Shown here one piece after another: positions 27,425-35,545 of a DNA stretch of 64,000 nt. The notes under the pieces are model-generated. The model searched no databases and had not been told where the DNA came from. It was given only the letters and a program-made list of their open reading frames with translations. The translations under genes and the position numbers were made by a program. Position 1 is the first letter of the stretch, and the number at the start of each line of letters is the position of its first letter. Origin of the DNA: an uncultured Pseudomonadota bacterium (GTDB taxonomy: Bacteria > Pseudomonadota > Alphaproteobacteria > Rs-D84); assembly GCA_949290785.1 (NCBI GenBank), contig CASETE010000011.1, positions 5,893-69,892 on the forward strand, given 5' to 3'.

Positions 27425-27955
27425 TTATACTTTGCGCACAGAGAATTCGCAACCGCAATAATTCTGACGATAAAAATTAGAATTTCTGCCAATTTCTTGA
27501 CGTAATTTTTCATCCCACTTGATTGGTATATAGGAAATATCTCCTAAAGAGCACTGTGCAGCACGGTCAACTTGTGATTGGTCTTTGTGTCGTGATACAC
27601 CAAATACAGATGCGACCGCGTCATATCCATTTTCTTTTGCCCAACGTCGTGCAAATTCAAATCTGAATTCAAAGCAACGACTGCAACGTGCACCTCGCTC
27701 TGGTTCGGCTTCTAAACCACGTACTGCACCGCGCCAGTCTTCGTGATTGTAATTTCCAACAGCGTATTTAACGCCCAAAGATTCGCAATATTTTATTTGC
27801 TCGTTCAGGCGTTTTGTATATTCTGCAGCGGGAAAAATGTTCGGGTTAAAGAACAACACAACAAAGTCATCAACGTCAGGTATTTCGCCGTCCGCTAATT
27901 GCTTTATTGCACCCGCACTGCAAGGTGCACAACAAGACATCAGAACCAGTTTCAT
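27425..27955 (-). CDS. queH: Epoxyqueuosine reductase QueH (DUF208)
   Basis: Conserved CCAPCS and C-terminal NYCGCEFS motifs. ATG overlaps the metG stop (ATGA), suggesting translational coupling. Confidence 0.75.
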   Translation of the reverse strand: MKLVLMSCCAPCSAGAIKQLADGEIPDVDDFVVLFFNPNIFPAAEYTKRLNEQIKYCESLGVKYAVGNYNHEDWRGAVRGLEAEPERGARCSRCFEFRFEFARRWAKENGYDAVASVFGVSRHKDQSQVDRAAQCSLGDISYIPIKWDEKLRQEIGRNSNFYRQNYCGCEFSVRKV

Positions 27956-29955
27956 TTTATTTCCCAAATACTGCCTATTTTTGCATCACTATCCAGTTCT
28001 ATTATTTCATCTGCGTTATTGCCCTGTCCCAGTTCTGCGGCACTGCACATCATACCGAAAGACTCAGTTCCTGCAATTGTGCGCTGGGATATAGGCTTTT
28101 TCATTGTCGGCAGCACGCAACCAACAGGTGCCAATATGCCAATTAACCCAACACGAACATTTGGCGCGCCACATACAATTTGTAAATTATGATTTGTACC
28201 GTCATCAACTGTTAAAAGATGCAAGTCATCACGTGATGGATGATTTTTTACTTCGATTATTTTAGCAACAACAGGTTTAACATTGTTGTCTTCTTTTTTA
28301 GCATATTTTTCAGTCAACTCTGCAACGCGCGCATCATCAATTCTGGAAAATAAGTTTTCTGGAACTGTGAAAGCTTCGCCATTTTGAATTCTGCGTTCAA
28401 ATTCTTTTGGCCAAGACAGGTCGTGCGTGTTGTTAAATACACGCTGTATTTTTTCTGCAGCATCTGGAATAAACGGTGCGGAAACGCGCGCATACAAGTC
28501 TATCAGTTGAAAGCATTCGTTTAGTACTGCACCCGCTTGCCCGGCGTTTCCATTTTTCACAAGCGCCCACGGTTCTTTAACAGTCATATATTCGTTACCA
28601 ATTGCATACAACGAACGCAACGCAACAACAGCCACACGGAATTCGCATGCGTCCAGCGCAGCAGTAAGTTCTGCAATTTTTTCGTTTACTTGCGCAGTTA
28701 AAGAAGCATCTAATTCGCCTGCATTTGGAACGGTTAGTCCAAAATTTTTATCAGTCAGTTTGCAAACGCGCGAAACAAAGTTACCCAACATACCGTTTAG
28801 GTCTTTATTGACGATGTCCGCAAAGCGCGCAAAAGTAAAGTCTGTATCGTCTGTTTCTGGTGCGGATGCAATCAGCGCATAACGCCAAGCGTCAGCAGGT
28901 GCAATGCTGACTGCTTCGTCCAAGAACACACCGCGCTTTTCAGATTTAGAAAACTTACCGCCTTCAAAATTCAGGAAGTTCATCGCTTTTAACTGGTCAA
29001 CAGTTTTCCAGTTGTCGTTCATCGCCAGTTGCTGTTCAGGGAATAAAACCGCATGGAACTTAACATTATCCTTGCCCATAAATTGTGCATAATGACAATC
29101 AGGATTTTTCCACCATGTTTCCCAGTCTTTATTTGCAGCCTGCGATATAGAAACATAACCCCAAGGTGCATCAAACCAAACATAGAAAACTTTATTTTCG
29201 TACCCTTCTTTATTTACAGGAATACCCCATGACAAATCACGTGTAATAGAATAGTCCAACAGACCGATTTTCTGCCAACCGTATGCGATACTTTTTGCAG
29301 TTTTTGACCAACCACTTGAATGAGTAGTCAACCAATCGTCCCAAAGCTTTTGCGCCTTTGATGCTAAAAAGAACAGATTTTTTGTTGGGCGTAGTTCAAT
29401 ATTACTGCTGCCAGATATTGTGCTGCGTGGGTTTAAAAGTTCTGTTGCTTCATATGTCGCACTGCACTTATCACATTGGTCGCCACGTGCCTTATCATAA
29501 CCGCACTTTGGGCAGGTTCCAACTAACTGACGGTCTGCCAAGAACATGTTATCATCAACAGAGAAAGGTTGCAGTGTTTCACGTTCTTCAATCAATCCCA
29601 GCTCATCAAGACGAGAAAATAAATCTTGGACTAATTTTTCCTGCAATTCTGTATGTGTACGTCCATAAATATCAAAAGATAAGTTAAAATTACGAACCGC
29701 ACGTAAATGTTTTTCGTAATATTTATTAGAATAATCAAAAGGCGACATATTTTCTTTCATAGCACCGACAACAACAGGTGTACCATGTTCGTCTGCCCCG
29801 CAAACATATAATACATCACGTCCGCATGCGCGACAAAAGCGGGCATATATATCCGAAGGCAACCAGCACCCGATAAGGTGCCCCAAGTGCAATTCGCCAT
29901 TAACATATGGCAATGCAGAAGTAATAAGATATTTTTGTTTATTGTCAGTTGTCAT
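27952..29955 (-). CDS. metG: Methionine--tRNA ligase with C-terminal EMAP/Trbp111-like tRNA-binding domain
   Basis: PYVNGELHLGHL (HIGH) and KFSKS (KMSKS) motifs; Zn knuckle CPKCG..CDKC. Start at MTTDNKQ (29955); the ORF-track TTG extension would run through the terminator hairpin. Confidence 0.9.
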   Translation of the reverse strand: MTTDNKQKYLITSALPYVNGELHLGHLIGCWLPSDIYARFCRACGRDVLYVCGADEHGTPVVVGAMKENMSPFDYSNKYYEKHLRAVRNFNLSFDIYGRTHTELQEKLVQDLFSRLDELGLIEERETLQPFSVDDNMFLADRQLVGTCPKCGYDKARGDQCDKCSATYEATELLNPRSTISGSSNIELRPTKNLFFLASKAQKLWDDWLTTHSSGWSKTAKSIAYGWQKIGLLDYSITRDLSWGIPVNKEGYENKVFYVWFDAPWGYVSISQAANKDWETWWKNPDCHYAQFMGKDNVKFHAVLFPEQQLAMNDNWKTVDQLKAMNFLNFEGGKFSKSEKRGVFLDEAVSIAPADAWRYALIASAPETDDTDFTFARFADIVNKDLNGMLGNFVSRVCKLTDKNFGLTVPNAGELDASLTAQVNEKIAELTAALDACEFRVAVVALRSLYAIGNEYMTVKEPWALVKNGNAGQAGAVLNECFQLIDLYARVSAPFIPDAAEKIQRVFNNTHDLSWPKEFERRIQNGEAFTVPENLFSRIDDARVAELTEKYAKKEDNNVKPVVAKIIEVKNHPSRDDLHLLTVDDGTNHNLQIVCGAPNVRVGLIGILAPVGCVLPTMKKPISQRTIAGTESFGMMCSAAELGQGNNADEIIELDSDAKIGSIWEIK

Positions 29956-29977
29956 ATTTACGCCTTTGTTATTTAAT

Positions 29978-30050
29978 AAAAAGGTGCCCAACGGGGCACC
30001 CAGGAATCCCGTCAGAAATTTTAGTAAGATTAATTGTACATTCGCATCAT
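29978..30050 (-). promoter_or_regulatory. Candidate metG leader-peptide attenuator: ORF MMRMYN (30030-30050) then terminator GGTGCCC-CGTT-GGGCACC + T5 (29978-30000), ~27 nt before the metG ATG. An alternative ACGGG:CCCGT pairing could act as an antiterminator
   Basis: Minus strand reads ATG ATG CGA ATG TAC AAT TAA (3 Met codons of 6), 29 nt spacer, perfect 7 bp GC hairpin, T run, metG. Lies between tRNA-Val(GAC) and metG. Confidence 0.45.
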
Positions 30051-30071: not shown

Positions 30072-30148
30072 TGGTGGGTGGTATTGGACTCGAACCAACG
30101 ACCTTTACGATGTCAACGTAACGCTCTAACCAACTGAGCTAACCACCC
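30072..30148 (-). tRNA. tRNA-Val (anticodon GAC)
   Basis: GGGTGGTTAGCTCAGTTGGTTAGAGCGTTACGTTGACATCGTAAAGGTCGTTGGTTCGAGTCCAATACCACCCACCA; perfect 7 bp acceptor stem; encoded CCA. Confidence 0.85.
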
Positions 30149-30162
30149 GATATTTTTCGGTG

Positions 30163-30237
30163 CTATGTCCAGAAAGCCAACGACCTTTACGATGTCAACG
30201 TACGCGGCTGACCAACTGAGCTAACCACCCGATAGAC
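30163..30237 (-). pseudogene. Truncated/degenerate duplicate of tRNA-Val(GAC): 5' acceptor strand, mutated D arm, anticodon arm, variable loop; no T arm or 3' acceptor
   Basis: About 52 nt nearly identical to positions 1-52 of the adjacent tRNA (..CCAACGACCTTTACGATGTCAACGTA..CCAACTGAGCTAACCACCCGA) with the D stem disrupted (CGCGGCTGACC for ACGCTCTAACC). Confidence 0.6.
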
Positions 30238-30308
30238 TTTAAACTTTCAGGATTATACCAAAGAAAAATACGATTGCAATATCAAAAAGCAGCATTTATA
30301 ATATATAC

Positions 30309-30483
30309 CGCAACAGGTGTTCTGTTGTTGGGCTTACAAACCCATTCAATCAGCGTCAGCGATGGCGAAAAATATCTCCAACTAATTGGTTGGAGTGGTC
30401 TGAATATATTGAATAAGACCGCAATTTCTGATTGAATTGTTTGTAAACTCCAACCACCTGAATTTTCCGGTGGTTTTTTGTTT
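30309..30483 (+). ncRNA. Structured sRNA, copy 1 (~175 nt), with own promoter TTGCAA-17-TATAAT (30274-30302) and terminator AACCACC-N10-GGTGGTT-T6
   Basis: Predicted helices: CAACAG/CUGUUG 5' hairpin; long-range UUACAAAC/GUUUGUAA; AUUCAAUCAG/CUGAUUGAAU; CUCCAAC-UAAUU-GGUUGGAG hairpin; GGUCU-(GAAUAUAUUGAAUAA)-AGACC hairpin; terminator. Confidence 0.5.
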
Positions 30484-30552
30484 AACGCAAGGGAGTAAAA
30501 AGCGCCAGAAAAAATAATTTGATATGTGATTTATGGGTGGTTATAATACATA

Positions 30553-30722
30553 CCGCAACAGGTGTTCTGTTGTTGGGCTTACAAACCTAGTGAACGCGCT
30601 TGGTTATCAGGCGAAAATCCAACCAATTGGTTGGAGTGTGCCGAATATATTGAATAAGGCACGCAATTCGTTCAATTGTTTGTAAACTCCAACCACCTGA
30701 ATTTTCCGGTGGTTTTTTGTTT
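30553..30722 (+). ncRNA. Structured sRNA, copy 2, promoter TTGATA-17-TATAAT (30519-30547), same terminator
   Basis: Same architecture as copy 1. The loop-closing stem changes GGUCU/AGACC to GUGCC/GGCAC (compensatory) with the identical loop GAAUAUAUUGAAUAA. Confidence 0.5.
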
Positions 30723-30791
30723 AACGTAAAGGAGTAAAAAGCACCAGAAAAAATAATTTGATATATGGTTTATGGGTGGATATAATATGTA

Positions 30792-30966
30792 CTGCAACAG
30801 GTGTTCTGTTGCTGGGATTCACAACCTATTGTCAAGCGTCCGCAGGGACGAAAAAAACTCCAACCCCTGGTTGGAGGGACTTTAAATATATTGAATAAAA
30901 GTCGCAATTCTTGACAATTGTTGTGAACCTCCAACCACCTGAAATTTCTGGTGGTTTTATTTTTGA
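30792..30966 (+). ncRNA. Structured sRNA, copy 3, promoter TTGATA-17-TATAAT (30758-30786), terminator CCACC-UGAAAUUUC-UGGUGG-U4AU5
   Basis: Long-range helix changes UUACAAAC/GUUUGUAA to UUCACAAC/GUUGUGAA (three compensatory pairs). Inner helix changes to UAUUGUCAAG/CUUGACAAU. Loop stem becomes GACUU/AAGUC. Confidence 0.5.
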
Positions 30967-30980
30967 ATATCGGGGGTAAA

Positions 30981-31169
30981 ATGACACTGGGTAATGAAAT
31001 AGAACAAATCCGACAAAAATGTAATATGCCGTTATTTATTGCATATTCTATATTTGATACCGATGAAAAAGGTTATCATCAAATTGTGATTGGTCGACAA
31101 AAACCCACAGTTTTTCAATTAATAATGTTTATTGATTCCACCCACCACCCAATGAAGTGTATAGAATAA
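30981..31169 (+). CDS. Small XRE/Cro-like helix-turn-helix protein (62 aa), tentative
   Basis: ATG 9 nt after RBS GGGGGTAAA, directly after the copy-3 terminator. LGNEIEQIRQKCNM...YHQIVIGRQKPTVFQLIMFIDS loosely fits the HTH_3 pattern (LG.rIr.lR...G...IS.IE.G.r.P....L.kIa.aL). Confidence 0.35.
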   Translation: MTLGNEIEQIRQKCNMPLFIAYSIFDTDEKGYHQIVIGRQKPTVFQLIMFIDSTHHPMKCIE

Positions 31170-31212
31170 AAACAGTTGTTATACACATACTATATTTTAT
31201 AATATTTAATAC

Positions 31213-31533
31213 ATGAAAGAATACAACTTTTGGGTATATATATTATTTAATGATCGTGCCAAGGCAACATATATCGGGGTTACAAATAATTTAGAACGCA
31301 GAATAATTGAACATAAAATGGGACTGGTACCTGGGTACACCAAACAGCACAATATTGACAAACTGGCTTACTTTGAACATTATCAATATATACACGATGC
31401 AATTGCACGCGAAAAGGCATTAAAAAAATGGAATCGTGCGTGGAAGTATAGATTAATAGAAACAATGAATCCTGAATGGAATGATTTGGCTGTTGGTTTG
31501 ACAGAATATATAAAAAATATGGTAAAAATTTAA
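31213..31533 (+). CDS. GIY-YIG nuclease superfamily protein (YhbQ/UPF0213-like stand-alone domain)
   Basis: YNFWVYILFNDRAKATYIGVTNNLERRIIEHK ... REKALKKWNRAWKYRLIETMNPEWNDL matches the GIY-YIG core and the C-terminal KKW.R.WK..LI...NP.W.DL signature; 106 aa. Confidence 0.7.
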   Translation: MKEYNFWVYILFNDRAKATYIGVTNNLERRIIEHKMGLVPGYTKQHNIDKLAYFEHYQYIHDAIAREKALKKWNRAWKYRLIETMNPEWNDLAVGLTEYIKNMVKI

Positions 31534-31623
31534 ACATTGTTTTTCTAATATATTATCTTATTTGTCATTCCCGCGTCCGTGGGTCAAAAAACTAATGTTT
31601 TTATTGGGTGATAATGCGTGTTT

Positions 31624-31758
31624 TGTCATTCCCGCGCAGGCGGGAATATGGTCTATTAAATTTATATCGCAGATTTCAGATTAATGAAAAAAACATAGAT
31701 ATATATAATTAATTAAATAATTATTTTAGTCCCTATTCCCGCCTGCGCGGGAATGACA
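31624..31758. mobile_element. MITE-like element, 135 bp, with perfect 24 bp terminal inverted repeats TGTCATTCCCGCGCAGGCGGGAAT (each containing ATTCCC-N8-GGGAAT) flanking an 87 bp AT-rich core; a third degenerate half-site at 31562-31586
   Basis: Left repeat 31624-31647 is the exact reverse complement of right repeat 31735-31758. GC-rich palindromic ends in an AT-rich intergenic region between the GIY-YIG gene and mreB. Confidence 0.5.
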
Positions 31759-31814
31759 GATAGAGGGGAATTTTCAAAATATAATATATCTGTTTGCGGT
31801 AATAACAAATAATA

Positions 31815-31843
31815 CAAAAAAACACCGGCATTTGCCGGCATTT
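31815..31843. terminator. Intrinsic terminator for mreB (A7-CACCGGCA-TT-TGCCGG-CATTTTT), same family as other terminators in the window
   Basis: Hairpin plus T run in the minus orientation directly after the mreB stop. Confidence 0.5.
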
Positions 31844-32941
<1,098 letters not shown>

Positions 32942-33017
32942 TTAAAAAATCAAGACATCGTGTATTTAATTTATGTTTTTTATTTGATTATCTTTATATT
33001 TTGTTATTATAAGCAGA

Positions 33018-33368
33018 ATGAGAAACACTATAAAAAGACATGACGATTTTTTAATGACGGACCAAGACCTGAATGCGCGGTGCGTTTGGTTTTATGTTCG
33101 CGCTAAACCTGTGAAAATATCCGGTGACCCCAGATTTGGCTTGACTGTGACTAAAAAGACGTTCAAGCATGCTGTTGACCGCAATCGGGCAAAGCGTTTA
33201 TTACGTGACTGGTTGCGCTTTAATGAAAAATACTTATGCGACGATTTTGATTATATTTTTACCGCGCGCAAGCCTATATTAGATGCTACGCGCGACGAAG
33301 GGCGCGACGCCATGCGCAAGGCCTTACATTATATAAAAAAGTTACGTAATGAAAAATCAGCAGAATAA
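33018..33368 (+). CDS. rnpA: Ribonuclease P protein component
   Basis: Basic 116 aa protein with RNR-like KRLLRDWLR motif; overlaps yidD as in the canonical rnpA-yidD arrangement (no rpmH upstream here). Confidence 0.8.
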
Positions 33369-33600
33369 TTTTTTGGTTAGATGGGCGCGTAAATGTGCAA
33401 ATATGCTTATACGGGGGTATCAGGTTTGTATATCGCCGTTTATCGGCGGGCGCGCAGCGTGCAGGTTTACCCCGTCTTGCAGCGAATATACCAGACTGGC
33501 AATTGAAAAGTACGGCGTGCGGCGCGGGGTCTGGTTGGGAATAAAAAGAATATGCAGGTGCAGGCCTGGTGGGGGCTATGGTTACGACCCTGTCCCTTGA
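33349..33600 (+). CDS. yidD: Membrane protein insertion efficiency factor YidD
   Basis: [22 protein letters not shown] signature; 83 aa. Confidence 0.8.
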
Positions 33601-33662
33601 CAAGTAACTTGATTGTGGTAAAATCTCACTTACTGATATAAAAAATATAAAAAGGATGTAAA

Positions 33663-34109
33663 ATGTCTTTTCGTGCAACCGTTGAATCCATGTCTAAAAT
33701 AATGGATGAAATGGGCATTACAGAACTGGAACTGGAACGTCAATTTTTATTCGGCGTTTATCGCAAACATATTCATTTATCAAAGCAACAGGCGACCGCG
33801 GTGGCAATGCCTAACTTCCCAGTTGCAACAGAATCAAAAAATACAAACAGCGAACCTTCTGAAAAGGTATTAAATGGTTACGCATTGAAATCGCCGATGG
33901 TGGGCGTTGCATATTTGGCGCCGGAACCCGGGGCAAAGCCGTTCACAACAGTCGGCGCGCAAATCAAGGCTGGTGATACCGTTGCGTTGATTGAAGCGAT
34001 GAAAACATTTAACCCAATAAAGTCTGACAAAGACGGCGTTGTAAAAGAAATATTGGTTTCCGATGGTCAGGCCGTTGAATTTGACCAACCAATCATAGTA
34101 ATTGAATAA
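33663..34109 (+). CDS. accB: Acetyl-CoA carboxylase biotin carboxyl carrier protein
   Basis: Biotinyl-lysine motif IEAMKTFN in a C-terminal lipoyl-like domain. Confidence 0.85.
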   Translation: MSFRATVESMSKIMDEMGITELELERQFLFGVYRKHIHLSKQQATAVAMPNFPVATESKNTNSEPSEKVLNGYALKSPMVGVAYLAPEPGAKPFTTVGAQIKAGDTVALIEAMKTFNPIKSDKDGVVKEILVSDGQAVEFDQPIIVIE

Positions 34110-34117
34110 GTTAAAAA

Positions 34118-35545
34118 ATGTCTCAGATAAAAAAAGTTTTAATTGCAAATCGTGGTGAAATCGCACTACGCATAATTCGTGCGTGTCGTGACATGGGTAT
34201 ACGAACTGTTGCGGTATATTCTACGGTTGATAAAAATGCAATGCATGTGCAGTTGGCCGACGAATCTGTTTGTATTGGTCCTGGGCCTTCAAAGGATTCT
34301 TATCTTAACGAGTCTGCGATTTTAACGGCGGCGTTATTAACGAACGCCGACGCGATTCACCCTGGGTATGGGTTCTTGTCTGAACGTGCGGATTTTGCCC
34401 AAAAGGTTGAGCAACACGGTTTAATATGGATTGGGCCGTCTGCTGCGATGATTGAAAAAATGGGCGACAAGGTTAACGCAAAAAAGACTGCTATTGAATG
34501 TGGTCTACCTGTTGTACCGGGGTCTGACGGTGCGGTAACGTCTTTGGAAGACGCATTATCGTGGGCAGAAAAAATCGGATATCCGGTTATGTTAAAGGCG
34601 TCTGCCGGCGGTGGCGGCCGCGGTATAAGGCCTGTTATGTCTGCCGAAGAAATGCCGGCTGCGTATCAAATTACAAAGCAGGAAGCAAAATCCGGCTTTG
34701 GTGACGACACGTTATATATGGAAAAGTTACTGTTACATCCAAGACATATTGAATTTCAGGTCTTGGGCGATAAGCATGGCAACGTTGTTATATTTGGGGA
34801 ACGCGATTGTTCCTTGCAGCGTAAGAATCAAAAGGTTATGGAAGAATGCCCTGCGGCAATTCTGACTCAGAAGCAACGCGACGATATGATAAAGATATGT
34901 AAAGAAGCCGCGAAAAAAATGGGCTATACAAACGCCGGTACTTTTGAGTTTATGTTTGAGGGCGGTAAGTTTTATTTCTTGGAAATGAACACGCGCCTGC
35001 AGGTAGAACATCCAGTGACGGAAATGGTGTATGGTGTTGACCTTGTACGTGAACAGATAAGGGTTGCGGCTGGCGAAAAGTTGGGTTATACACAGTCTAA
35101 CGTTGTACCGCATGGTCATGCGATTGAATTTCGTATAAATGCCGAAGACCCAGAAAACTTTGTTCCAAATCCGGGAAAAATTGCTTTATATGCGCCGTCT
35201 GGTGGCATGGGCGTTCGTGTGGATAGCGCGGTTTATACTGGATATACGATACCGCCGACTTATGATTCAATGATTGCAAAGTTAATAGTTCATGCGCCGA
35301 ACAGGCCAGCGTGCATAATGCGTGCGACGCGTGCGCTGGATGAATTTGTAATTGAAGGCGTAAAGACGACGATACCTTTGCAACAGAGGTTATTAAAGAA
35401 CAAAGATGTAAAAACTTTAAATTTTGATAACCATTGGCTGGAAAGTTTTTTACAGGGTGAAAAAGCGCAATCTGCTTCAAAGGAAGATGAAGATGCGACG
35501 ACGGACGAAACTGTAAAAAATAAAACAGTTAAAAAGAAGAAATAA
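34118..35545 (+). CDS. accC: Acetyl-CoA carboxylase biotin carboxylase
   Basis: ATP-grasp fold, KVLIANRGEIALRIIRAC N-terminus, 475 aa; followed by terminator A6-GCCGGCAAACGCCGG-T7 at ~35547-35575. Confidence 0.9.
   Translation: MSQIKKVLIANRGEIALRIIRACRDMGIRTVAVYSTVDKNAMHVQLADESVCIGPGPSKDSYLNESAILTAALLTNADAIHPGYGFLSERADFAQKVEQHGLIWIGPSAAMIEKMGDKVNAKKTAIECGLPVVPGSDGAVTSLEDALSWAEKIGYPVMLKASAGGGGRGIRPVMSAEEMPAAYQITKQEAKSGFGDDTLYMEKLLLHPRHIEFQVLGDKHGNVVIFGERDCSLQRKNQKVMEECPAAILTQKQRDDMIKICKEAAKKMGYTNAGTFEFMFEGGKFYFLEMNTRLQVEHPVTEMVYGVDLVREQIRVAAGEKLGYTQSNVVPHGHAIEFRINAEDPENFVPNPGKIALYAPSGGMGVRVDSAVYTGYTIPPTYDSMIAKLIVHAPNRPACIMRATRALDEFVIEGVKTTIPLQQRLLKNKDVKTLNFDNHWLESFLQGEKAQSASKEDEDATTDETVKNKTVKKKK

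Follow-up and report, generated by a model that had tools for sequence, protein, structure and literature searches.

The interval between the tRNA-Val gene next to metG and the mreB gene, in a 64-kb stretch of contig CASETE010000011.1, carries three tandem repeats of about 240 bp each, a gene for a 62-aa protein with a helix-turn-helix (HTH) fold, a gene for a 106-aa GIY-YIG nuclease and an inverted-repeat element. In what follows, the window is this whole 64-kb stretch, to which all coordinates refer unless a comparison locus is named, and L-numbers (for example L027) designate the loci or contigs fetched for comparison. The host belongs to the Candidatus Enterousia clade of gut alphaproteobacteria, and its metG shares 97% identity with the metG of an uncultured alphaproteobacterial metagenome-assembled genome (MAG). 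Candidatus Enterousia-type bacteria form an uncultured lineage of the order Rs-D84, with genomes mostly smaller than 1 Mb (PMC12306168). A first-pass annotation of the window had read the two genes as a regulator and a nuclease belonging to one small accessory module. We describe here the RNA units that precede the HTH gene and the hairpin repeats that accompany the nuclease gene, and discuss the distribution of the two genes in 80 related species-level loci, all from Candidatus Enterousia-like gut MAGs.

The 62-aa Protein

Both open reading frames (ORFs) are as the first-pass annotation described them. The first, at 30981-31169 on the plus strand, begins with an ATG and is preceded, 4 nt 5′ of this codon, by a Shine-Dalgarno-like GGGGG (30972-30976, plus strand) that is kept in relatives. 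The second occupies 31213-31533. The annotation had left room for the first ORF being non-conserved. It is a real gene, since its pairwise ratio of nonsynonymous to synonymous substitution rates (dN/dS) lies between 0.10 and 0.34 and since the 10 strain-level contigs checked all carry it intact.

The protein has no match in Pfam (E ≤ 10), NCBIfam, PADLOC or PHROGs. A word-indexed search returned seven close clusters only, tblastn on the loci of relatives gave many ORFs of 58-67 aa that are 30-50% identical to it, a profile search gave 62 clusters, and an exhaustive hidden Markov model search gave 136 representatives at 50% identity, nearly all 60-100 aa long and none annotated. The 62-aa protein founds a lineage-restricted family, confined to Candidatus Enterousia-type gut alphaproteobacteria.

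The HTH assignment is borne out by structure prediction. The AlphaFold model, computed from a 42-sequence alignment, has a pLDDT of 95.6 and contains four helices (residues 3-13, 18-24, 29-36, and 44-54). Its Foldseek matches in the PDB are mostly XRE-family proteins (HipB, C.BclI, CapH, DdrO, P22 c2, SinR, and ImmR), with TM-scores of 0.65-0.77 and a probability of 1.00. Among sequences, the family profile reaches, as its weaker matches, bona fide multi-domain HTH_3 proteins (E from 1e-8 to 1e-3), two of 19 relatives match Pfam HTH_3 (best E = 2.7e-4), and a profile search of the PDB with the family retrieves the N-terminal HTH of ElrR (E = 0.012). By inspection, a conserved Gly and a conserved Pro after helix 3 stand at HTH_3-consensus positions; Cys22 and Gln46 are invariant or nearly so in the family. 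As modelled, the protein is a minimal, single-domain XRE/Cro-type fold.

A Conserved RNA Unit Precedes the HTH Gene

The three tandem repeats, all on the plus strand, lie between a tRNA-Val fragment and the 62-aa ORF, and each contains a near-consensus promoter followed by an RNA of about 170 nt that ends with a GC stem and a U-tract. Unit 1 (30307-30478, 156.3 bits with a covariance model, R1) is array-internal and has no gene behind it; its promoter-like site, found by promoter scan, is TTGCAA-17-TATAAT at 30274-30302. Unit 2 (30552-30717, 145.9 bits), also array-internal, and unit 3 (30791-30959, 172.4 bits), the leader of the 62-aa ORF, are each preceded by a TTGATA-17-TATAAT site with 11 of 12 consensus matches, at 30519-30547 and 30758-30786, respectively. 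The predicted fold of unit 3 has P1, a hairpin at the 5′ end, P2, a long closing stem, and the inner hairpins P3, P4, and P5, of which P5 bears a conserved 15-nt loop (30884-30898, GAAUAUAUUGAAUAA) that is the same whatever gene lies downstream. The minimum energy of this fold is -72.9 kcal/mol, with a folding z of -6.6.

Model R1 was built from 21 units. It has three matches in the window, 53 (including a few weak or partial ones) in the 80 reference loci, 30 in loci derived from searches with the ORF and the nuclease, and 99 in metagenome contigs, 80 in number, retrieved by means of a 21-base motif. In the 53-sequence alignment of the family, pairs form in 94.1% of cells, and compensatory changes are seen in 41 of 47 pairs. 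Covariation scores 0.625, compared with 0.19 for shuffled alignments and about 0.1 when partners are slid, and none of 500 shuffles reaches the observed values, it being understood that the alignment was fitted to R1 and favours R1's own helices. Rfam 15, searched at gathering and at permissive thresholds with the window and eight loci carrying divergent units, holds no family for the RNA unit.

The link between unit and gene is systematic. The 62-aa ORF starts 22 nt after unit 3, and a scan of 30787-30981 finds no promoter-like site, so that the predicted promoter of unit 3 is the only one available to the ORF. Each of the 27 ORFs of the family, counted over the window and the 80 reference loci together, has an R1 unit before it, and the ATG comes 21-30 nt after the end of the unit, as read from the sequences. 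The linkage also holds for the ORFs of L001-L008 and L089-L098, and it includes second copies elsewhere in a contig (L058, L065). More distant relatives (L001, L002, L005, and L024) have exactly one unit and the ORF, with no nuclease gene. The HTH gene has its true partner upstream, in the RNA unit.

Other genes stand behind the same unit. In the reference loci these encode secreted cysteine-rich proteins, a DNA methyltransferase, another small protein family, and a second XRE-like family. When the 92 strongest metagenome units were parsed, seven preceded the HTH family, 11 were array-internal, 12 had no ORF in range, and 62 preceded other genes, which start mostly 15-37 nt downstream of the unit. 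Many of the other proteins have signal-peptide-like N-termini and are cysteine-rich, and several small ones are XRE-like by eye. Ten compared with Pfam gave one Ephrin_rec_like, one Flg_new, and one small protein weakly matching HTH_31, most being without a family. Overall, the genes behind the leader are for the most part those of secreted cysteine-rich proteins and of further small XRE-like proteins. The leader hence looks like a shared cis-regulatory cassette of a regulon, of which the small HTH protein, its most frequent cargo, may be the regulator.

Several further observations concern the units and their cargo. R1 totals about 180 matches in the sequence fetched, and tandem arrays are common, L143 having five units and L112 and L096 four each. 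Among strains sharing an identical nuclease protein, the copy number of array units varies from 1 to 4. The order of unit subtypes is u1-u2-u3-HTH in the window (30307-30959) and u3-u2-u1-HTH in L009 (7004-7654). The second small XRE-like family, of 70-80 aa with an N-terminal motif LIDAxYFG...AR, lies directly behind the leader in L101 (1124-1375), L110, L119, L130, L163, L167, and L082 (10872-11270), and so does a family of 50-85-aa proteins with a KHPxYR motif. Elsewhere, unit cassettes adjoin tRNA genes, usually divergently (L038, 3044-3359; L065, 14667-15021; L083, 14349-14692; L085, 7229-7874), and tRNA promoter regions may be preferred sites for them.

A Predicted Terminator/Antiterminator Arrangement in the Leader

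Three segments of the unit are conserved in sequence: A (CUCCAACC), B (GGUUGGAG(G)), and C ((C)CUCCAACC), the last four bases of C being the start of the 5′ arm of the terminator. A and B form an inner hairpin of the minimum-energy fold, which in unit 3 is P4 (30858-30865 with 30869-30876), and are 80-86% paired across the family. The terminator helix, numbered 8 in the alignment, is 97.8% paired. A third helix, B:C, is 96.3% paired with four compensatory pairs, although the alignment was built with a model lacking it; its ninth pair is G-C in 25 sequences, U-A in 16, and U-G in 3. In divergent variants (L050, L066, L082), A, B, and C change in concert: L050-type units have GGCUGGAG with CUCCAGCC, and L082-type units have ACCUGAC, GGUCGGG, and CCCGACC.

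B:C shares 4 nt with the terminator arm, and the two helices are mutually exclusive; in unit 3, segment C spans 30928-30936, and the terminator pairs 30933-30939 with 30950-30956. Because of this exclusion, the leader would be organized, in order, as an anti-antiterminator, an antiterminator, and a terminator. Pairing of A with B would leave the terminator free to form and the gene off, which is the predicted default. Pairing of B with C, the helix backed by covariation, would block the terminator and turn the gene on. As the 62-aa gene has no promoter of its own, it would be made only when RNA polymerase reads through the terminator of unit 3. The unit thus looks like a read-through-controlled leader of this gene. 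The two upstream units of the window are gene-less duplicates that, each with its own promoter and terminator, would yield a short RNA only.

The U-tract of the gene-proximal unit is interrupted (GGTGGTTTTATTTTT, 30950-30966), while the array-internal units have GGTGGTTTTTTG (30463-30482 and 30702-30721), and termination just before the ORF may be leakier for this reason.

Four other interpretations of the unit were set aside. A leader peptide was rejected, a short AUG-initiated ORF through segment A being present in unit 1 and absent from units 2 and 3. A candidate promoter inside the RNA (TTGGAG...TATATT) has the wrong spacing, and a kissing interaction between the P1 and P5 loops is not kept in L038-type variants. 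Finally, an integron attC-like or DNA-level repeat was rejected because G-U pairs are frequent and strand-specific.

The GIY-YIG Nuclease and Its Hairpin Repeats

The second gene (31213-31533, plus strand) encodes, as annotated, a stand-alone GIY-YIG protein: residues 6-79 match PF01541 above the gathering score (E = 3.6e-17), and there is no other domain. A promoter-like site, TTGTTA-16-TATAAT (31176-31203, plus strand, 10 of 12 matches), ends 9 nt before its ATG. NCBIfam has no family above cutoff for the protein. Its similarity to the UPF0213 protein EF2693 (1ywl; E = 0.005, 20 bits), its sole sequence match in the PDB, is weak. The label "YhbQ-type" is imprecise and fits distantly at best; the adjacent hairpins point instead to the Ssn branch. 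A literature search for YhbQ together with GIY-YIG found nothing.

Ssn proteins are small single-domain GIY-YIG proteins (CDD cd10448), which hairpin repeats typically flank (Chenal et al., 2025, PMC11893778). They are site-specific single-stranded DNA (ssDNA) endonucleases that cleave next to their hairpins, the repeat of Neisseria, called NTS, being CGTCATTCCCGCGMAVGCGGGAATCYRG; in this genus they restrict transforming DNA (PMC11893778). The link with this system came from a literature search with the repeat sequence itself. Indeed, the inverted-repeat element downstream of the nuclease gene (31624-31758, both strands; repeat I1) consists of two inverted NTS hairpin repeats around an AT-rich core, with 42-nt arms that are 86% complementary. 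NTS consensus matches are found at 31624-31651 (plus strand, two mismatches) and 31731-31758 (minus strand, three mismatches), where none is expected by chance. A partial NTS-like arm (TTTGTCATTCCCGCGTCCGTGGGTC) is present at 31561-31583 (plus strand), within a 61-bp segment found in some strains only. Rfam gave only sub-threshold matches to the element (WsnRNA46, FtrB, and CbSR3).

The element had been taken for a MITE, a miniature transposable element with inverted repeats. Its inverted arms are present, but within the window the motif GTCATTCCCGCG is confined to the vicinity of the nuclease gene, and the element is better described as NTS/SRM repeats. In 98 fetched loci, the motif occurs only with the nuclease gene, apart from a single match in L070. 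Homologues of the nuclease are numerous (more than 700 clusters, many of them 65-85% identical) and extend to alphaproteobacterial, "Rickettsiales", and even Bacteroidales MAGs. Those of L219, L220, and L066 sit between two inverted NTS-like arms, as do the flanked genes of the published system (PMC11893778). By inspection, the spacing of Y9, Y20, and E67 (11 and 47 residues) equals that of Y6, Y17, and E64, the residues mutated in SsnA of Neisseria meningitidis (PMC11893778). The gene is therefore a probable member of the Ssn family, encoding a hairpin-specific ssDNA nuclease whose cognate NTS hairpin would be the former "MITE". By analogy with Neisseria SsnA, the enzyme would cut ssDNA next to the NTS hairpins.

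The repeat is polymorphic among strains. In L097 (4131-4273) and L098 (3379-3521), the NTS is a lone palindrome of 28 nt, with the 4 nt of its loop flipped between the two (GCAG vs. CTGC). In the window (31533-31844), it is expanded to the 135-bp inverted-repeat form, with the extra 61-bp segment.

Two Elements With Independent Distributions

Comparison with L027 delimits an insertion of about 640 bp (31174-31815, both strands), which contains the ssn-like gene and the NTS repeats and has AAAAAC on both sides. With respect to L027, it sits between the stop codon of the HTH gene and a bidirectional terminator shared with mreB (31818-31845, both strands, terminator scan), which directly follows the HTH ORF in relatives lacking the insertion (L027, L010, and L012). 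The segment is absent from L027 and other relatives and is found only in the closest ones. The exact nuclease protein occurs at this one locus in 21 of 21 contigs; the nuclease gene and its repeats are a fixed, lineage-specific insertion and not a currently hopping element.

The first-pass annotation had proposed a synteny comparison of the tRNA-Val-mreB interval, and this interval does prove variable among relatives rather than core. The tRNA-Val gene is next to metG almost universally in the 80 loci. At the tRNA-Val spot, the RNA-HTH pair is present in 16 of the about 69 loci with enough upstream sequence, while about 19 loci run straight from tRNA-Val to accC or mreB. A GIY-YIG gene is found there in four of 80 loci, namely two close relatives, L021, where it is in the opposite orientation and the RNA-HTH pair is gone, and L066, where the protein is 46% identical. 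Conversely, the HTH gene occurs without GIY-YIG in 14 of the 16 species that have it at this spot, and also at other loci, and distant homologues of the nuclease stand in unrelated contexts. The identity of the HTH protein does not follow that of metG (L010: metG 96%, HTH 45%; L027: metG 77%, HTH 88%), which points to cassette exchange.

The interval is thus accessory, as the annotation had supposed, but it holds two independent accessory elements and not one system. The annotation's further suggestion, a toxin-antitoxin (TA)-like, defence-like, or mobile-element maintenance module made up of a regulator and a nuclease, is not supported, because the two genes are distributed independently; besides, the nuclease gene has its own promoter-like site and is tied to hairpin repeats. 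PADLOC gives nothing significant for either protein, the best result being UzuA (E = 6.7e-4) over 46 residues of the nuclease, with no match for the HTH protein. Our preferred reading, to which we give a probability of about 60%, is that the locus consists of two unrelated elements side by side: a small HTH gene gated by its leader, and a probable Ssn-type nuclease inserted later with its repeats, which shows no demonstrable functional link to the HTH gene.

Evidence Against the Two-Element Reading

Several points weigh against this reading or parts of it. There is no terminator between the HTH and GIY-YIG genes, and their co-transcription is possible. The copies of NTS in the window are only on the 3′ side of the nuclease gene. 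Concerning the leader, both the conditional read-through and the alternative fold are inferred. The terminator state is the minimum-energy fold and is 13-21 kcal/mol more stable than a nested fold in which B:C is enforced; antitermination would hence need an active factor, or B:C would form as a pseudoknot. The default state is probably off, as modelled, with a factor needed to turn the gene on. Moreover, gene-less tandem copies with their own promoters are unexpected for a purely cis-acting leader, which suggests an additional role in trans.

For the 62-aa protein, Foldseek gives poor E-values (0.03-0.2), which is normal with a query of this small size, and the profile search called for by the annotation succeeds with the family profile only, the window protein itself being below every Pfam HTH threshold. 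Its predicted recognition helix is acidic (E29 in 40 of 42 family sequences and E31 in 28 of 42), and the net charge of the family is near 0 on average. For these two reasons, binding of DNA or RNA by the family is plausible, not assured.

Alternative Explanations

The explanation that best survives beside the two-element reading makes the RNA units mainly trans-acting small RNAs (sRNAs), with seeds of the anti-Shine-Dalgarno type (CCUCC), linkers rich in A, and terminators that have a U tail. The 62-aa protein would then be an ordinary DNA-binding autoregulator of their promoters, and downstream expression by leakage would be incidental. Every unit indeed has its own promoter and terminator, gene-less tandem copies vary from 1 to 4 between strains, and larger arrays such as that of L143 exist elsewhere. 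Segment C (CCUCCAACC) is single-stranded beside the terminator in the minimum-energy fold, and sRNA seed regions often lie single-stranded next to a terminator. The longer uninterrupted U-tract of the array-internal units, compared with that of the gene-proximal unit, goes in the same direction. However, more than 90 units precede a co-oriented gene, mostly within about 15-37 nt, which leaves no room for a promoter; such a spacing is typical of leaders and not of free-standing sRNA genes. In addition, covariation supports B:C, which competes with the terminator and is superfluous for a pure sRNA, and inspection of the unit promoters revealed no conserved palindromic operator around them, nor any operator-like palindrome beyond a palindromic -35 hexamer. 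We regard this explanation as unlikely.

A broader proposal unites leader and protein. The unit of about 170 nt would represent a regulatory RNA of a new class, absent from Rfam and acting either as a riboswitch or as a factor-dependent attenuator. It would gate a regulon composed of small XRE-like proteins and cysteine-rich secreted ones in the reduced genomes of the Rs-D84 gut bacteria, with the 62-aa protein as its dedicated RNA-binding trans-factor and the gene-less copies as titrating decoys. Taken as a whole, this combination is quite improbable. A related explanation starts from the protein: the 62-aa HTH would be the trans-factor of its own leader, binding the P5 loop or the P4 hairpin as RNA, possibly as DNA, and setting termination for its own gene and a regulon, with orphan copies as decoys. 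No other family is carried behind the leader as often as the 62-aa one, of which no member is found without a leader, and the P5 loop is kept regardless of the downstream gene. Regulators acting on leaders are often encoded behind their own leader, as is the case for BglG, PyrR, and ribosomal proteins. Aca2 and Aca1 are examples of small HTH proteins that recognise hairpins located in their own 5′ untranslated region (5′-UTR) (PMC13551039). Against this stand the acidic recognition helix and the near-neutral protein. Nor does the HTH subtype track the unit subtype: no consistent pattern links HTH subtypes to unit subtypes or loop variants, the HTH subfamily of L077 lies behind a standard B/C variant, and the order of units is shuffled between the window and L009. 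This explanation, too, we hold to be doubtful, a rather long shot.

Finally, a single TA, defence, or maintenance module in which the HTH protein controls or neutralises the nuclease appears very unlikely: the genes are adjacent, co-oriented, and 43 nt apart with no terminator between them, the XRE antitoxins HipB and HigA are among the structural neighbours of the 62-aa protein, and the pair is kept together in every strain of the closest clade, but most species have the HTH gene without the nuclease gene, L021 and L066 have the reverse, distant nuclease homologues lie in other contexts, the nuclease gene has its own promoter-like site, the PADLOC matches are insignificant, and for the nuclease family a partner has been described already, namely the NTS hairpin.

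Relationships With Known Systems

In fold and size, the 62-aa protein is close to the XRE/Cro-C1 HTH proteins (HTH_3, PF01381; P22 c2, 434 Cro, SinR, HipB, and C.BclI). It departs from them by its scores below the Pfam thresholds, its acidic helix, and its near-zero charge, and its gene, behind a terminator, has no promoter or operator of its own.

The order of elements recalls ToxIN, a type III TA system, in which a promoter, RNA repeats, a terminator, and a protein gene follow one another. The same order is seen here with a promoter, tandem RNA units, an intrinsic terminator, and a small protein gene. In contrast with ToxIN, the units are independent transcription units of 240 bp and not processed repeats of 36 nt, the protein is a 62-aa HTH and not a ToxN/AbiQ-type endoribonuclease, and the same RNA precedes many unrelated genes.

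The leader shares with riboswitches and with protein- or tRNA-dependent attenuators (for example c-di-GMP-I riboswitches, PyrR, BglG/RAT, and T-box) a promoter-proximal covarying RNA, an intrinsic terminator, and a competing helix, and it precedes many different genes within one lineage. c-di-GMP riboswitches often control genes for secreted or surface proteins, and many of the cargo genes here likewise encode such proteins. Differences from these systems are that the unit has no Rfam family, that segment B is in an internal hairpin and not in the closing helix, and that there are tandem copies, each with a promoter.

Aca2 and Aca1 resemble the present case in that a small HTH protein is encoded behind a conserved structured 5′-UTR RNA, and they set an earlier example of an HTH domain that binds both DNA and RNA hairpins (PMC13551039). 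However, the Aca motifs are one or two short hairpins acting on translation, whereas the RNA here is a 170-nt four-way junction with an intrinsic terminator; the locus lacks a phage or acr context, and the recognition helix is predicted to be acidic.

As for the nuclease, it is like N. meningitidis SsnA and its NTS/dRS3 repeats in being a single-domain GIY-YIG protein of about 100 aa, with adjacent NTS-like hairpins and the same Tyr/Tyr/Glu spacing (PMC11893778). It differs in the number and position of the repeats, two or three copies in 64 kb, all beside the gene and on its 3′ side, against hundreds in pathogenic Neisseria, and in that the host has a reduced genome.

Neighbouring Features

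Upstream of the array, metG (27952-29991) and tRNA-Val (GAC anticodon; 30072-30148, ARAGORN; Rfam tRNA, 71.4 bits) are on the minus strand. The tRNA-Val fragment reported by the annotation is real: 58 nt at 30177-30234 (minus strand, repeat D5) duplicate the 5′ part of the tRNA gene and are 90% identical to 30095-30152. This duplicate is found in relatives too, some of them without the RNA-HTH pair. The promoter scan gives a divergent promoter pair at 30252-30302 (both strands), in which the plus promoter faces RNA unit 1 and the minus promoter (TTGCAA-16-TATAAT, 30279-30252, TG-extended) faces tRNA-Val. A single palindromic TTGCAA (30274-30279) provides the -35 element of both. If the minus promoter drives tRNA-Val, the fragment at 30177-30234 would belong to the leader of the tRNA precursor.

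Beyond the inverted-repeat element lies mreB, on the minus strand, and then rnpA, yidD, accB, and accC. This mreB-accC block (31844-35545 in the window, 6229-9963 in L001) is inverted between Enterousia lineages, and one breakpoint of the inversion is the tRNA-Val/RNA-HTH spot. Downstream of metG, queH is fused to DUF559/MTES_1575 in L089 (1148-2236), L091, L092, and L095, giving proteins of 357-362 aa, while other strains have a plain, unfused QueH of 171-189 aa (for example L090, 1538-2053).

Implications for the Rs-D84 Lineage

For annotation, the locus indicates that an XRE-like gene adjacent to a nuclease gene should not be read as a TA or defence pair before co-occurrence has been checked. 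The nuclease would add an alphaproteobacterial gut lineage to the recently described Ssn/NTS system, with hairpin polymorphism visible at the strain level. The small XRE-fold family, with its acidic "recognition" helix, is a candidate for a non-canonical use of the fold. Finally, the leader cassette is a well-defined orphan RNA family, the trigger of which could be sought directly. With its promoter, leader, and terminator placed before dozens of genes for secreted proteins and small regulators, it may be one of the principal switches of the surface or secreted repertoire of these bacteria.

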